Assembly: GCA_965203445.1 (NCBI GenBank)
Contig: OZ241883.1
Coordinates: 128,001 to 192,000 of the forward strand
From: Candidatus Oxydemutator sp.
Lineage (GTDB): Bacteria; Pseudomonadota; Gammaproteobacteria; Poriferisulfidales; Oxydemutatoraceae
Reading direction: 5' to 3'
DNA length: 64,000 nucleotides
Shown: piece after piece, positions 16,337-49,883 of the stretch
Position numbering within the stretch: position 1 is the stretch's first letter
How the letters are laid out: each line of letters begins with the position of its first letter
Position numbers and translations under genes: made by a program
Notes under the pieces: model-generated
What the model saw: only the letters and a program-made list of their open reading frames with translations
Database searches by the model: none
What the model was told of the DNA's origin: nothing

Positions 16337-16374
16337 ACGACACTTCGGGAACGCCCGTGGGGGCGTTCCCTTGC
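16337..16374. repeat. short palindromic element copy 1 (GGGAACGCCC-loop-GGGCGTTCCC)
   Basis: Perfect 10-bp stem; related copies at about 16527-16564 and 46262-46291. Confidence 0.75.
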
Positions 16375-16526
16375 TTTTGTTCTGGGCGAAGCGCACTATC
16401 GTATCAACCGCCACGCAATGGCCCGCATGCCCGGCATGGAAGTCTTTGCCCAAGCGCTGGCGCTGCTGGCGCTTGAACTCCTTGCGCCGACCGCGACTGT
16501 CCAGGCGAACCGCCACCTTGCGCAGT

Positions 16527-16564
16527 ACGACACTTCGGGAACGCCCGTAGGGGCATTCCCTTGC
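16527..16564. repeat. short palindromic element copy 2
   Basis: ACGACACTTCGGGAACGCCCGTAGGGGCATTCCCTTGC, 2 differences from copy 1. Confidence 0.75.
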
Positions 16565-17046
16565 CTTGGGGCACCATCAGGCGAGAGAGCAATCCCGCGC
16601 CGCACTCGAAGCGCATCCTACCTAAATTCGGATGGCGCTCACGCAAGCGTCTGATCTCTTGGACCACCGCCACCGGCCACCGCCGCACCCGCCTGTTCTT
16701 GGGCGCCTTGCTGACGTCGTGCAACCCACTGAGACCGCCTTCGCGGTGGCGCTTGCGCCATGCATACAGGGTGCTGCGCGAAACCCCGAAGGCGTCTTGG
16801 GTTGCAGGCAAGCCATGATTATCCCAGAATATGAGGGCGTCGTATTTGCGTTCGGCACTCGTTGCCATGAGCCTCCATTTTGAAAGCGTAGGAAGCTATT
16901 TTACGCAACCCTGGGACGCGGTAGCCGACGTGCTTTATTTGCATGTCGGCTACCTTTCTGCGGCTAAGATATTGTCCAGAATGTTTCTGGCCCTATACAG
17001 GTCCGCTGCCGGATATGCCGGGGGATGCTATAATCCCTCCCCGATC

Positions 17047-45475: not shown

Positions 45476-46029
45476 TGCACCCGGCGGCATTGCCGAACTT
45501 CCTGACCATGCTGCGCGTGCTGCTGACGCCGGTGTTGGTCGTGCTGTTCCACCTGCCGTGGGCGTGGAGCGGCGCGGCCTGCGCCGGCGCCTTCGTGCTG
45601 GCGACGTTGACCGACGCGCTCGACGGCTGGATCGCGCGCCGCCTAAGGCAGGAGACGCGCTTCGGCGCCTTTTTGGATCCGGTCGCCGACAAGCTGATCG
45701 TCAGCGCCGCGCTGGTCATGATTGTAAGCCGCGATCAATCGCTGATAATCACGGCCCCGGCGATGATCGTGATCGGGCGCGAGATCGCGGTGTCCGCGCT
45801 GCGCGAGTGGATGGCGCAGCTCGGTCAGCGTAAACTGATAGACGTATCCCAACTCGGCAAAGTCAAGACCGCGGCACAGATGGTGGCGATCAGCCTGCTG
45901 CTCTACAACGAGCCGCTCCTCGGCCTCGATACCAGGCAGGCAGGCCTGGTGCTGCTCTACGTCGCCGCGATCCTGACGCTGGTCTCCATGACCGCGTACC
46001 TGCAGACCGCTTGGCGGCACCTGCGATAA
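45472..46029 (+). CDS. pgsA: CDP-diacylglycerol--glycerol-3-phosphate 3-phosphatidyltransferase
   Basis: TDALDGWIARR...FGAFLDPVADK motif; follows uvrC. Confidence 0.96.
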   Translation: MMHPAALPNFLTMLRVLLTPVLVVLFHLPWAWSGAACAGAFVLATLTDALDGWIARRLRQETRFGAFLDPVADKLIVSAALVMIVSRDQSLIITAPAMIVIGREIAVSALREWMAQLGQRKLIDVSQLGKVKTAAQMVAISLLLYNEPLLGLDTRQAGLVLLYVAAILTLVSMTAYLQTAWRHLR

Positions 46030-46123
46030 CGGTCGGGTTTGCGGCGCCGGGAGGCGCAAAGCGATTCGTCGGGAAAAGACCGGGAGCCTCGCTCGCGCGC
46101 ATAGGCCCGGCGCAACGGAGCGC

Positions 46124-46199
46124 TGGAGCGGGAAACGGGGTTCGAACCCGCGACCTCAACCTTGGCAAGGTTGCGCTCTACCAACTGAGCTATTCCCGC
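46124..46199 (-). tRNA. tRNA-Gly(GCC)
   Basis: Reverse complement GCGGGAATAGCTCAGTTGGTAGAGCGCAACCTTGCCAAGGTTGAGGTCGCGGGTTCGAACCCCGTTTCCCGCTCCA. Confidence 0.97.
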
Positions 46200-46462
46200 G
46201 CCACTTTCGCGGGCGCCATTTTCCACCAACGCCGCCACTCAGTCAACACGATGTACGGCTGCTTCGGGAACGCCCGCGGGGGCGTTCCCTTACCTTTCAG
46301 GGGCGCTCATGGGGCGTTTCCTCGCCTCGGGTTGCTATCAGGCGAGAGGGTGACTCCGCGTCGCACTCGAAGTGCGTGCCACCTGCATTCGGATAAGGTG
46401 CTGCGGCTGACCCCGAATGCGCCTTGGGTTGCAGACAAGCCGTGTTTGTCCCAGAATAGTAG

Positions 46463-47774
46463 GGGAATTATATATCTAAATCTACAGAATAGTGGTGAAG
46501 TACTTGATTTTCTATAGGAATATGGTATGATGTTTTGTGATGAAAGTCCATAGAACAATCCGGTATAGGTTGCATCCTGGTACGCAGGCCAAAGCCCGCA
46601 AGTTGGCGGGATTGGCGGGGGCGTGCAGGTTTGTATGGAATCATTTCGTAGGGAAGTTAAGGGACGAATATCTGGCATATGGATGCTGTAAGCCTTGGTA
46701 TTTTACATTGGGCAAGCAGTTCACTCTGTTACGTCGCCACTGTGAACCCTGGTTGCAGGAATACTCGGCCAACATAGTAAAGGCATCTTTGAAACAGTTG
46801 GAAACGACGTACAAGCAGTTTTATAAGAAAGAGGGCGGATTGCCGAGGTTCCATGCAAAATATATGCATCCCGATAGTTTTCCCTTGGTGACGGGGACGT
46901 TCCATCTGAAAGGCCGTTACTTGCACATCGCCAAGATAGGCGAGGTGCTGTTGCTTGGCCACTATCCCTATCCGGACGGCGTGCCGAAGTCCGGCGCGGT
47001 CAAGCGGGAATGCGGCAGGTGGTATGCGTATATCACGTATGAAGTGGAACAATCCGAAGCATTGAAACCTGTAAGAGAAGTCGGCATAGACCGCAACGTC
47101 GGTCAGGTAACATTATCCGACGGGACGATGTATCGTATGCCGGATACGGCAAAACATGAACGTCGCGTCAGGCGTTATCAGAAGAAGATGGCCAGGCGAC
47201 AGGGGCCGAACCGCAAGAAAGGGATCAAGGCGTCGAACCGGTGGAAGCGCGCACAGTTGCTTCATCAGAAGGCACAGGCCACGTTGCGACACGTCAGACG
47301 GAATTGGTGCCATGGCGTATCGAGGGAAGTGGCCGATAAATACTCCCTTGTGCACCTGGAGCAGTTGAACAATCCAGGGATGACAAGAAGCGTCAAGGGA
47401 ACAAAGGAGAAACCCGGAACCAACGTTCGCGCGAAGAGCGGCTTGAACCGCGTGATCCTGGCGTCATGCTGGGGCAAGTTTCACCAGTGCCTGGACTACA
47501 AGACGAATACGAATTACATAAACCCTGCATACACAAGTCAGACATGCAATAAATGCGGGAACGTAGATAAAGAAAACAGAAAGACGCAGGCGGCGTTTAT
47601 TTGCACCGCTTGCGGTCATCGGGACAATGCGGATGTAAATGCCACATCGAATATATTGGCCTTCGGGAATGGGGCTACTGGACGTGGAGGCGGCGAGGTT
47701 ACTCGGCCTGTGAAGCGTCAAATGGATACCAGAAATCAACAAGAAAGTCTTGTAGATTTAGGTATATAATTCCC
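46463..47774 (+). mobile_element. non-autonomous tnpB cassette with 24-bp TIRs and 8-bp TSD (IS1595-family-like ends)
   Basis: Left TIR GGGAATTATATATCTAAATCTACA (46463-46486) vs right TIR reverse complement GGGAATTATATACCTAAATCTACA (47751-47774), 23/24 identical; AATAGTAG duplicated at 46455-46462 and 47775-47782. Confidence 0.9.
46537..47769 (+). CDS. tnpB: TnpB RNA-guided endonuclease
   Basis: N-terminal YRLHP..GACRFVWN; RuvC-I VGIDRN, RuvC-II LEQL, Zn finger CNKC..CTAC, RuvC-III NADVNA; start GTG 46537 or ATG 46540. Confidence 0.93.
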   Translation: MMKVHRTIRYRLHPGTQAKARKLAGLAGACRFVWNHFVGKLRDEYLAYGCCKPWYFTLGKQFTLLRRHCEPWLQEYSANIVKASLKQLETTYKQFYKKEGGLPRFHAKYMHPDSFPLVTGTFHLKGRYLHIAKIGEVLLLGHYPYPDGVPKSGAVKRECGRWYAYITYEVEQSEALKPVREVGIDRNVGQVTLSDGTMYRMPDTAKHERRVRRYQKKMARRQGPNRKKGIKASNRWKRAQLLHQKAQATLRHVRRNWCHGVSREVADKYSLVHLEQLNNPGMTRSVKGTKEKPGTNVRAKSGLNRVILASCWGKFHQCLDYKTNTNYINPAYTSQTCNKCGNVDKENRKTQAAFICTACGHRDNADVNATSNILAFGNGATGRGGGEVTRPVKRQMDTRNQQESLVDLGI

Positions 47775-47794
47775 AATAGTAGAACATCCCATTG
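47620..47794 (+). ncRNA. predicted omegaRNA overlapping the tnpB 3' end (boundaries approximate)
   Basis: Stem-loops at about 47681-47719 and 47726-47765; TnpB omegaRNAs are known to overlap the ORF 3' end and element right end. Confidence 0.5.
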
Positions 47795-48032
47795 GCGTTC
47801 GGCGCTTGTCGCCATGGGCTTCCATACGGTTTGCACAGGAAGCTATTTTACGCAACCCTGGGACGCGGTAGCCGACGTGCTTTATCTGCACTTCGGCTAT
47901 CTTTTTGTGGCCAGGATATTGGCCAGTACGTTTCTGGCCCTATACAGAGTAATCCGCGCCGAATAGTGGTAGTCTTTGCGCCATGGGTTCGTCGCGGATT
48001 TCACAAGCCCGTGCGAGGATCACCTATACGGG

Positions 48033-48103
48033 GGCTAGTTGGCAGAGTGGTTATGCAGCGGCCTGCAAAGCCGTGTACGCCGGTTCGATTCCGGCACTAG
48101 CCT
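48033..48103 (+). tRNA. tRNA-Cys(GCA)
   Basis: GGCTAGT/ACTAGCC acceptor stem, CTGCAAA anticodon loop, GGTTCGATTCC T arm; followed by TCA rather than CCA. Confidence 0.93.
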
Positions 48104-48136
48104 TCACCCGCACCGTCGCCGGCGACGGCGAAAAAC

Positions 48137-48220
48137 GGGGACGTGGCGGAATTGGCAGACGCTTTGGACTTAAAATCCAATGGCTTGAGAGCCGTGCGGG
48201 TTCGAGTCCCGCCGTCCCCA
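48137..48220 (+). tRNA. tRNA-Leu(TAA)
   Basis: GGGGACG/CGTCCCC acceptor stem, CTTAAAA anticodon loop, long variable arm, GGTTCGAGTCC; followed by CCG. Confidence 0.93.
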
Positions 48221-48239
48221 CCGCTTCGGCGCACCGCCG

Positions 48240-49883
48240 GTGACACAAAGCGCCGGCGCGAGAAAAACCCGCGTCGTGATCGTCGGCGGCGGCTTCGCCG
48301 GCGTGTTCACCGCGAAATACCTGCGCCGCTACGCCGCGGGCGCCGACGTCGAGCTGATCAACGGCAACAACTATTTCGTGTTCCAACCACTGTTGCCGGA
48401 AGTCGTCGCCGGCACGATCGGCATTGCCGACGCGGTGTCGCCGCTGCGCCTGCTGTTGCCGAAAACCCGCTTTCGCATGGCCGACGTTGCGTCGTTGGAC
48501 CTGAAGAAACAGATGGTGCGCGTGCTGCAGGGCATCAAAACCCGCTACATCCGCGTACCCTACGACCACCTTGTCATCGCCTGCGGGCTTGCGCCCGGCC
48601 TGGAGTCGCTGCCCGGCTTCGCCGAGCACGGTTTGGCGCTGAAGAACGTCGCCGACACCTACGCGCTGCGCAACCACCTCATCCAGTGCCTGGAACACGC
48701 CGACGTAACCAACGACCCGGAACTGAAGAAGAGACTGTTGACCTTTGTCGTCGCCGGCGGCGGTTTCTCCGGCGTCGAGACCGTCGGCGAAATCCACGAG
48801 ATGCTGCGCCGCACGGTGCGTTACTACCCGTACGTGTCGCCCGCCGAAATCCGGCTGGTCATCGCGCACGGCGGCGCGCGGCTGCTGCCGGAGTTATCGC
48901 CGGCGTCGAGCCGCTACATACGCCGGCTGTTCGAGAAACGCGGCATCGAGGTTCTGCTCGACCGCCGCCTGGCCAGCGCCACCGGCACTTCGGTGCGTTT
49001 CGAGGACGGTGGCGAAATCGAGACGATGACGCTGATCACGACGGTCGGCATGACGACGGCGCGGGTGATCGCGTCGTCGCCGCTGCGCCTGAGGCGCGGG
49101 CGCGTCGTCACCAACCGCCTGCTCCAGGCCGACGGCTACGACAACGTCTGGGCAATCGGCGACGCCGCCTGCATCCCGCTCGACGACGACGGCGGGGAAT
49201 ACGCGCCGCCGACCGCGCAATTTGCGGTGCGCGAGGCGAGGCAACTCGCAAAAAACGTCGCGGCGTCCATCGCCGGGCGCGCACCGGCGCCGTTCTCGTA
49301 CACAAGCAGGGGCGCGCTCGCGTCGCTCGGCAACCACCGAGGCATCGCCGAAGTCTTTGGCGTGCGCCTGTCCGGTATCTCCGCGTGGCTGTTGTGGCGC
49401 AGCCTGTACCTGTCCATGCTGCCGGGCGCCGCTACGCGGCTGCGGGTTGCGATCGACTGGCTGTTCGATCTGTTCCTGCCGCGCAGCATCGTCCAGATCG
49501 AGCAAAAAACGGGGCACGCCTGCCGCATGCTGCGCTTCCGGAAAGGCGACCTCGTCTCGCAACCGGGGCAAGTGACGCGGGGGCTGTACACGGTCGTGTC
49601 GGGGGCGCTCGAGGAATATTCTCGGGATCCGCGGACTGGCGAGGAACTGGTGCGGGTGCTCGGCGCCGGCACGCACTGGGGCGAACGCACCGCCAGCGAC
49701 GAGACGCCGACGGTCGGCACGTTGCGCGCGATCAAAGACAGCGTCGTGCTGGTGCTCGACAAACGGGACTTCAGACGGCTGCGCCGCTCGTTCAACGTGC
49801 TGAACGAATACTTCGAGCAGCTGCCCGAATCGCTCTACCCGAGGGAGCAGCAACACCGCGTGCCGCACTCCGACGACGAATGA
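48240..49883 (+). CDS. type II NADH dehydrogenase-like FAD oxidoreductase with C-terminal cNMP-binding-like domain
   Basis: VVIVGGGFAG, VVAGGGFSGVE, WAIGDAA, PPTAQFA; C-terminal FRKGDLV..QPGQ..GLYTVVSG..HWGE. Confidence 0.85.
   Translation: MTQSAGARKTRVVIVGGGFAGVFTAKYLRRYAAGADVELINGNNYFVFQPLLPEVVAGTIGIADAVSPLRLLLPKTRFRMADVASLDLKKQMVRVLQGIKTRYIRVPYDHLVIACGLAPGLESLPGFAEHGLALKNVADTYALRNHLIQCLEHADVTNDPELKKRLLTFVVAGGGFSGVETVGEIHEMLRRTVRYYPYVSPAEIRLVIAHGGARLLPELSPASSRYIRRLFEKRGIEVLLDRRLASATGTSVRFEDGGEIETMTLITTVGMTTARVIASSPLRLRRGRVVTNRLLQADGYDNVWAIGDAACIPLDDDGGEYAPPTAQFAVREARQLAKNVAASIAGRAPAPFSYTSRGALASLGNHRGIAEVFGVRLSGISAWLLWRSLYLSMLPGAATRLRVAIDWLFDLFLPRSIVQIEQKTGHACRMLRFRKGDLVSQPGQVTRGLYTVVSGALEEYSRDPRTGEELVRVLGAGTHWGERTASDETPTVGTLRAIKDSVVLVLDKRDFRRLRRSFNVLNEYFEQLPESLYPREQQHRVPHSDDE

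Follow-up and report, generated by a model that had tools for sequence, protein, structure and literature searches.

TnpB is understood mainly from the IS200/IS605 and IS607 elements, which excise without leaving a scar. IS200/IS605 elements, as a 2026 review describes them, have neither terminal inverted repeats (TIRs) nor target-site duplications (TSDs) and insert beside a target of 4-5 nt that doubles as the target-adjacent motif (TAM) (PMC13565253). We analysed a window of 64,000 nt from Candidatus Oxydemutator sp. (GCA_965203445.1, OZ241883.1:128,001-192,000; the window is the whole stretch of DNA analysed, and coordinates refer to it unless stated), in which a tnpB gene is the sole cargo of a non-autonomous element with TIRs and TSDs of the IS1595 type. 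Covariation shows that the tnpB transcript folds over its last ~150 nt (47627-47774) into a set of stems, P0-P4. We consider it quite probable that this structured RNA, which we infer from the DNA, is the omegaRNA scaffold of TnpB, about 110-150 nt long and ending on the last base of the element.

The locus shares several features with the IS200/IS605 TnpBs of the ISDra2 type, namely the protein family, the catalytic triad, a structured RNA that lies over the tnpB 3' end up to the right boundary, and a guide that would come from the flank. In contrast to IS200/IS605, there are TIRs of 24 nt and TSDs of 8 bp, there is no Y1 TnpA, and the last two RNA helices are formed by the TIR. The Y1 TnpA domain (PF01797) was absent from the complete source genome, and control genomes gave matches. 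With a TIR and a TSD present and PF01797 absent, the element falls outside IS200/IS605, including its TnpB-only IS1341 type.

Altae-Tran et al. (2023, PNAS) described six DDE-associated TnpB branches with inverted terminal repeats (PMC10691335). According to that account the 3' end of a DDE-associated tnpB lies within 250 bp of the transposon end, and there are solo TnpBs with ends nearly identical to those of transposase-bearing elements, suggesting mobilisation in trans (PMC10691335). The inverted ends, the 250-bp proximity and the solo-TnpB pattern as reported there (PMC10691335) hold at the present locus too. The main text of the paper names IS630 and contains no occurrence of IS1595, and one of its six DDE branches may be an IS1595-linked clade. 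Covariation of the RNA and a TIR that serves as scaffold are not known to figure in that account (PMC10691335). The 2026 review lists ISL2, IS630 and IS1031 as DDE partners and discusses the rarity of DDE associations (PMC13565253). A literature search on TnpB together with IS1595 gave, judged by titles and abstracts, no paper on such an element. DDE-associated TnpBs with inverted ends are already known; the additions made here are the IS1595 partner, a covariation-supported model in which the TIR is part of the scaffold, and an asymmetry of the insertion sites.

In the eukaryotic Fanzor/HERMES systems, as described in two reports, the guide RNA lies over the TIR and continues into the TSD, and the TAM agrees with the insertion site (PMC10312701; PMC13565253). 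Those systems are eukaryotic or viral, with an RNA 3' of the open reading frame (ORF) and a TSD that is often fixed, whereas the present system is bacterial, with an RNA that overlaps the ORF and a TSD that is AT-rich and variable. IS1595 elements with passenger genes have, like the elements described here, GGGAATTAT termini and 8-bp TSDs, and the autonomous copy of the source genome carries a methyltransferase-HNH gene. By comparison, the TnpB elements lost, or never had, the transposase and keep the passenger only. Their termini presumably resemble the ISNwi1 subgroup of IS1595; a search of the literature on ISNwi1 found nothing relevant.

Stems P0-P4 and their covariation

The source genome is a single contig of 2.38 Mb, rated 100% complete. 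Twelve full-length copies of the element (74-100% nt identity) were analysed end to end, and there are a 13th, divergent copy and two deleted ones. Folded alone, positions 47722-47770 of the window element (copy A) gave the P4 hairpin (-14.5 kcal/mol, z -4.18), with 1 of 200 shuffles as good. The 135 nt from 47640 to 47774 gave a fold of -41.4 kcal/mol (z -2.28) that includes the GACG/CGTC stem (P2) and a closing helix (P1), in which GGGAAU pairs with the terminal AUUCCC (Table 1). The original prediction had already placed a hairpin and an upstream GACG/CGTC stem here, and its positions were all correct (ATACC from 47726, GGTAT up to 47765, GACG at 47681-47684, CGTC at 47716-47719, TAA at 47767-47769). 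It also had the 3' arm of the hairpin coincide largely with the right TIR and the stop codon lie inside the TIR, and both statements hold, as the P4 arm is within the TIR from 47751 and 47767-47769 is within 47751-47774. The closing helix P1 was absent from it.

Covariation was measured first on an alignment made with MAFFT only (70 distinct right ends), with the structure taken from the fold of copy A. Pairing was seen in 81.0% of cells of this alignment and fell to 19.8-43.2% once the partners had been slid by 1-3 columns, and there are 159 double-change cells against 67.8 in shuffles; 0 of 500 shuffles reached the observed values. RNAalifold on the same alignment recovered the closing helix P1 alone because the hairpin lengths vary, and the structure was therefore set by hand and a covariance model built. 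The model was built from 44 of the 70 ends and gave 76 matches in 93 loci, all of which end at the element terminus. In the model alignment (72 distinct rows) 87.8% of cells pair and double-change cells number 278 against 90 in shuffles (0/500). Compensatory change was found in 25 of 32 pairs, which bears out the stem covariation among homologues that the original prediction had put forward for checking. Because the model alignment was made to fit the structure, and because its sequences are akin, the figures overstate independence; the slid-partner controls and the MAFFT-only result agree with it in direction.

One pair of P0, whose bases are third codon positions of alanine, is G-C in 27 sequences, A-U in 25 and C-G in 4; in copy A, P0 contains a single C-A mismatch. 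The fifth pair of P1 (A-U in 57 sequences, U-G in 7, C-G in 5) tracks the TIR terminus, which changes from AATTCCC to AAGTCCC. The P2 stem, present in the fold as had been proposed, changes from G-C to C-G in 13 sequences and from A-U to G-C in 3, and the encoded residues change on both strands of the stem. All 8 pairs of P3 are changed on both sides (92-97% of cells paired). Even between copies A and B, at 97% identity, P3 has one compensatory switch from G-C to C-G, besides two C-to-U changes that retain wobble pairs. In P4 all 10 modelled pairs are changed on both sides, with 74.9% of cells paired.

In the TIRs of the 12 full-length copies the outer 12 nt (GGGAATTATATA) are conserved and the inner part differs among subfamilies. 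Despite these differing inner TIRs, every copy has a right-end hairpin with its 3' arm in the TIR, the sequence just 5' of the right TIR being complementary to the copy's own inner TIR (12/12); the hairpin is no mere chance fold. The encoded peptide is not conserved beyond KRQMDT, and the stop codon stands 5, 14 or 19 nt from the element end, always within the TIR. The earlier proposal that ORF tail, RNA and transposon end evolved together is thus upheld by the 10 double-changed pairs of P4 and by the unconserved peptide that follows KRQMDT.

G-U cells outnumber A-C cells by 255 to 53 overall and by 74 to 18 in P4 alone, a bias that assigns the structure to the sense strand of tnpB. An alternative is that the right-end hairpin and the nearby stems are not RNA, and act in transposition at the DNA level as extra transposase-binding repeats or as a single-stranded DNA hairpin. 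The P4 5' arm amounts to a third copy of the inner TIR, the left end of copy G also has a strong hairpin (-16.2 kcal/mol), and some TIR-based pairing occurs in two or three of 16 autonomous IS1595 ends, all of which would fit such signals. Double-stranded binding sites would, however, give no strand asymmetry of the kind seen in the G-U and A-C counts. The structure is also specific to the right end in 11 of 12 copies, the left ends having no equivalent hairpin, and P0, P2 and P3 covary although they lie inside the ORF and far from the TIR. Folds of the 16 ends of 8 autonomous IS1595 elements gave a TIR-based hairpin in about 3, so that it is absent from most of them. On this evidence a purely DNA-level function appears very improbable.

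It is only a little less improbable that the structured 3' region carries no guide and serves the tnpB mRNA alone, which it would stabilise by protecting the 3' end or regulate at the level of translation. Its place at the extreme end of the ORF and the lack of an Rfam match of the omegaRNA type would agree with such a role. Against it, the sequence has no U-tract following P4, the intact RuvC triad in all copies implies a nuclease that requires a guide, and the insertion sites have an orientation-specific bias (see below). The stop codon, moreover, shifts among copies (5-19 nt) and the closing helix takes the last six bases of the element; since P1 uses these bases, the structure is tied to the transposon boundary and not to the stop codon. 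All 15 model matches in the source genome lie at tnpB 3' ends, 14 directly after a TNB-domain match and the 15th in a deleted copy.

Table 1. Positions of the element, its gene, RNA stems and flanking features
Feature	Coordinates	Strand	Remarks
Element, non-autonomous IS1595-type, tnpB sole cargo	46463..47774	+	1312 bp; bounded by TIRs and TSDs
Left TIR	46463..46486	+	24 nt; 23/24 positions complementary to 47751-47774
Right TIR	47751..47774	+	Also P4 3' arm, stop codon and P1 3' strand
TSD, left copy, 8 bp AATAGTAG	46455..46462	.	Identical 8-mer at 47775-47782
tnpB ORF, 409 aa from conserved ATG	46540..47769	+	ORF listing starts at GTG 46537
tnpB stop TAA	47767..47769	+	Inside right TIR, 5 nt before element end
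P0, upstream stem	47627..47647	+	Within RuvC-III codons; 92.9% of cells paired vs 11-47% slid
P1, closing helix, 5' strand GGGAAU (codons Gly-Asn)	47665..47670	+	Partner 47769-47774; 98.1% of cells paired
P2 (GACG stem), 5' strand	47681..47685	+	Partner 47715-47719; 95.6% of cells paired
P3, hairpin	47688..47709	+	47688-47691 and 47694-47697 pair with 47702-47709
P4, terminal hairpin	47726..47765	+	3' arm is the right TIR from 47751 on
Predicted guide AATAGTAGAACATCCCATTG	47775..47794	+	Putative; first 8 nt are the right TSD copy
IS481-like remnant, codons about 14-60, downstream of insertion	46311..46462	-	BLAST matches to paralogues
IS481-like remnant, 5' end and start codon	47783..47946	-	84-90% identity to 7 other copies
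Autonomous IS1595-family element, 2.6 kb	G000:C1:1978350-1980966, outside window		23/26 TIR bases as in copy A; 8-bp TSD ATCAGAAA

TnpB and its proposed IS1595 transposase partner

The sole long ORF of the element is tnpB. The protein matched three Pfam families, all above cut-off (Cas12f1-like_TNB, 7.1e-15; HTH_OrfB_IS605, 5.9e-08; OrfB_IS605, 1.1e-07), and the NCBIfam model guided_TnpB (E 5.2e-59, 200.5 bits against a cut-off of 100). Compared with the solved ISDra2 TnpB (8bf8, 8h1j; D/E/D aligned to the 8bf8 chain), the protein retains the RuvC D, E and D as well as the cysteines of the zinc finger. Among 10 copies D184, E274, D365, C336, C339 and C358 do not vary and C355 hardly does (CxxC...CxxC zinc finger). 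The alignment with ISDra2 TnpB ends at residue 375, and the last ~35 residues, which the structured RNA region encodes, lie outside the conserved core. Judged by these residues TnpB is catalytically intact. RNA-guided, TAM-dependent DNA cleavage by this protein is a prediction, to which the base bias 5' of the TSD is the sole pointer.

The tnpB frame is open in all 12 full-length copies (406-434 aa); the genome has 13 open frames (406-442 aa). The 13th copy (G000:C1:895601-896973) has a 433-aa open frame and an RNA-model match of 77.8 bits, and BLASTN found it only in part. Seven of the 12 copies have perfect 8-bp TSDs, two have 7/8, two 6/8 and one none. A scan of one genome per species gave 76 related loci with 46-79% best-segment protein identity (50-61% near full length). 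Their hosts are metagenome-assembled Gammaproteobacteria (Arenicellales, Porisulfidus, Thiotrichales, Chromatiales and others) and one member of the Opitutales. The termini of these loci are the same as in the source-genome copies or, in the Arenicellales type, GGGACTTATATA. Both ends could be defined for 40 of 72 right ends, and among these 40 the TSD was perfect in 22, had one mismatch in 7 and two or more in 11.

The boundaries of the window element are exact, as identity with a copy at another site (97% identical) drops precisely at 46463 and 47774. The 24-mer of the TIR occurs exactly 2 times in the 64-kb window, against 0.00 expected (100 shuffles), and G+C content is 46-57% within the element and about 65-70% in its surroundings. 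Contigs from four DNA-type runs gave short fragments only, among which no empty site appeared; the one joint in them, of 46296 with 47838, came from a single run and lies off the element ends. The target site AGAATAGTAG (46453-46462) is alike in 9 of 10 positions to the sequence inside the left TIR, AGAATAGTGG (46485-46494), which is conserved in copies B and F, inserted at other sites. This likeness may be chance or a hint of homology-biased insertion.

The TIR and TSD belong to an IS1595-family DDE element, which the original prediction had not recognised. Accidental nesting of an IS605-type element in an IS481 was rejected as an explanation, since the TIRs and TSD are the element's own and TnpA is missing from the genome. 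The autonomous 2.6-kb element (Table 1) holds the sole intact IS1595 transposase gene of the genome (DDE_Tnp_IS1595, 1.3e-43; NCBIfam IS1595, 6.5e-61). Its passenger is a 436-aa N6/N4 DNA methyltransferase with a fused HNH nuclease domain. Related genomes also have IS1595 elements, with GGGAATTAT termini, 8-bp TSDs and inner-TIR subtypes that match those of the TnpB elements. The window element itself has no DDE_Tnp_IS1595 transposase. With tnpB as its only long ORF and the transposase partner elsewhere, it is a non-autonomous derivative and not an insertion sequence in the strict sense. We propose that it would be mobilised in trans by an IS1595 transposase that recognises the 24-nt TIRs and makes the 8-bp TSDs, because the ends and the TSD length are shared. 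The TIR would then have a triple role, as transposase binding site, as the end of the ORF with its stop codon, and as the P4 3' arm together with the P1 3' strand.

The presence of the IS1595 transposase was scored at E 1e-40 in 53 genomes of the order. The transposase was found in 23 and the RNA in 20; 16 had both, 4 the RNA only, 7 the transposase only and 26 neither. The genomes are related to one another, and neither feature occurs in one of the families, so that the association supports a partnership only weakly. Genome G019, of the same family (97% complete, 80 contigs), has 28 RNA-model matches and no IS1595 transposase at this threshold; its IS1595 partner may be divergent, unassembled or lost. 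The source genome also has a 163-bp ORF-less element with similar TIRs (G000:C1:113341-113503), probably a miniature derivative, and several solo ends, for example near 68712, 937479 and 1821061.

Flank, predicted guide and insertion sites

Homology between copies stops at 47774. Read-through transcription into the flank would supply the guide, with the TSD (AATAGTAG) first and unique flank after it. A guide that starts at the element end, its assumed start, would read AATAGTAGAACATCCCATTG and begin with the TSD, in agreement with the original prediction, which also had this guide match the IS481 family. The second claim holds in part. The flank does come from the 5' part of an IS481-like transposase gene, which lies on the minus strand, but the match to the family is not borne out, as the guide has 8 mismatches in 20 at the homologous place in six other IS481-like copies. 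Targeting of IS481 copies by this guide was rejected on the same count. With so many mismatches to the paralogues, the guide fits only the pre-insertion form of its own degenerate remnant, and beyond its own flank the rest of the genome has no match with fewer than 5 mismatches. The same was true of the other copies: for 12 of 12 guides the copy's own flank was the only close match, and no second match with <=2 mismatches was found.

The host of the insertion is a ~320-bp IS481-like 5' remnant situated between tRNA genes. The best NCBIfam match of a full-length paralogue (358 aa) was IS481, at E 3.2e-56 and 190.9 bits, below the cut-off of 224, with IS3 second. Three tRNA genes (46127-46199, minus strand; 48033-48103 and 48137-48220, plus strand; Rfam, 62-72 bits) bracket the remnant and the element, and between a tRNA gene and the IS481-like remnant lies a repeat of ~35-70 nt (46259-46331) with >30 genome copies at 75-97% identity. 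Mobile DNA has accumulated in this tRNA-flanked gap. A further IS481-like copy lies at 16343-17000; its transposase frame (16404-16868, minus strand) codes for only 154 aa, where the full-length paralogue has 358, and this copy therefore looks disrupted.

TnpB exaptations have been published. That TnpB and its RNA are functional here and have been exapted for host defence or regulation, with guides that are not simply flank, would agree with the high copy numbers in small symbiont genomes. The copies are mobile, however, with fresh perfect TSDs and two copies that are 97% identical, the catalytic residues are intact, and the sequences that follow the scaffold in the various copies bear no relation to one another and each occur only once in the genome. 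We regard exaptation as extremely improbable.

If instead the flank supplies the guide of a transposon-borne TnpB, the occupied site would be safe, because the guide match is there preceded by ...AATTCCC, whereas the empty site has host bases 5' of the TSD. These host bases may act as the TAM; this is the weakest step, suggested by the purine at -1 alone. The insertion sites were pooled as 39 distinct insertions with TSDs matching in 7-8 of 8 positions, identical sites being counted once; 11 of 40 elements and 26 of 40 further right ends were left out of the pool for want of an acceptable left end or TSD. The TSDs of the 39 sites are AT-rich and variable. In the main family (33 sites) G stands at position -1 in 24 sites, A in 8, T in 1 and C in none, and the mirror position, +9, is C in only 4 of 33. 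Five of 6 sites of the Arenicellales type have T at -1, and one TIR subtype has ATA at -3 to -1.

IS1595 elements without TnpB had G at -1 in 2 of 8 sites, and their TSDs had 5.4 A/T bases in 8, against 6.8 in the TnpB elements (Mann-Whitney p 0.005, n=8). A symmetric transposase is not expected to give a preference beside the TSD that is specific to orientation and lineage, and such a preference would fit a TAM of TnpB. A logo of the bases 5' of the TSD, as the original prediction had advised, does show an orientation-specific preference at -1, but it does not solve the question of the TAM. The suggestion that the orientation-specific purine 5' of the TSD may be the TAM is suggestive only.

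Weighing the model and its meaning for TnpB

These findings would also fit a bolder, tentative model, which we hold to be possible but rather less than an even chance. TnpB would be an obligate IS1595 passenger. Within the scaffold the TIR would form the part nearest the guide, whose first 8 nt the TSD would supply, and a TAM imposed by TnpB and lying outside the TSD would shape which insertions persist.

Several points weigh against the main reading, in which the structured RNA is the omegaRNA scaffold of an element moved in trans by an IS1595 transposase. The 5' end and the 3' end of the RNA and the length of the guide are all predictions from the DNA. An Rfam scan of 45900-48400 with E up to 1 gave the three tRNAs and chance-level matches only. 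The shuffle control ignores kinship, with sequences from about 20 related genomes, and the model alignment was fitted to the structure. Some stems are weak, P1b being paired in 76% of cells and three pairs of inner P4 unpaired in 26-36 of 72 sequences. Four genomes have the RNA and no IS1595 transposase at E 1e-40, one of them with 28 copies. A preference of one base is very short beside the 4-5 nt TAMs that the 2026 review gives for IS200/IS605 (PMC13565253), and excision by cut-and-paste may leave no intact empty site for cutting.

The overlap of functions at the right end is very compact, with a single 24-nt stretch that comprises the transposase site, coding sequence with its stop codon, and two RNA helices. 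According to the 2026 review it is open why TSD-making DDE transposons keep an RNA-guided nuclease and how a TAM is set when the target is duplicated (PMC13565253). For both questions this element family offers autonomous partners that match, an RNA model supported by covariation, a candidate position for the TAM and dozens of natural insertions whose ends are exact. If the model is true, these elements would be a prokaryotic counterpart of Fanzor and a natural case in which RNA-guided cutting of the empty site goes together with a TSD-making DDE transposase.

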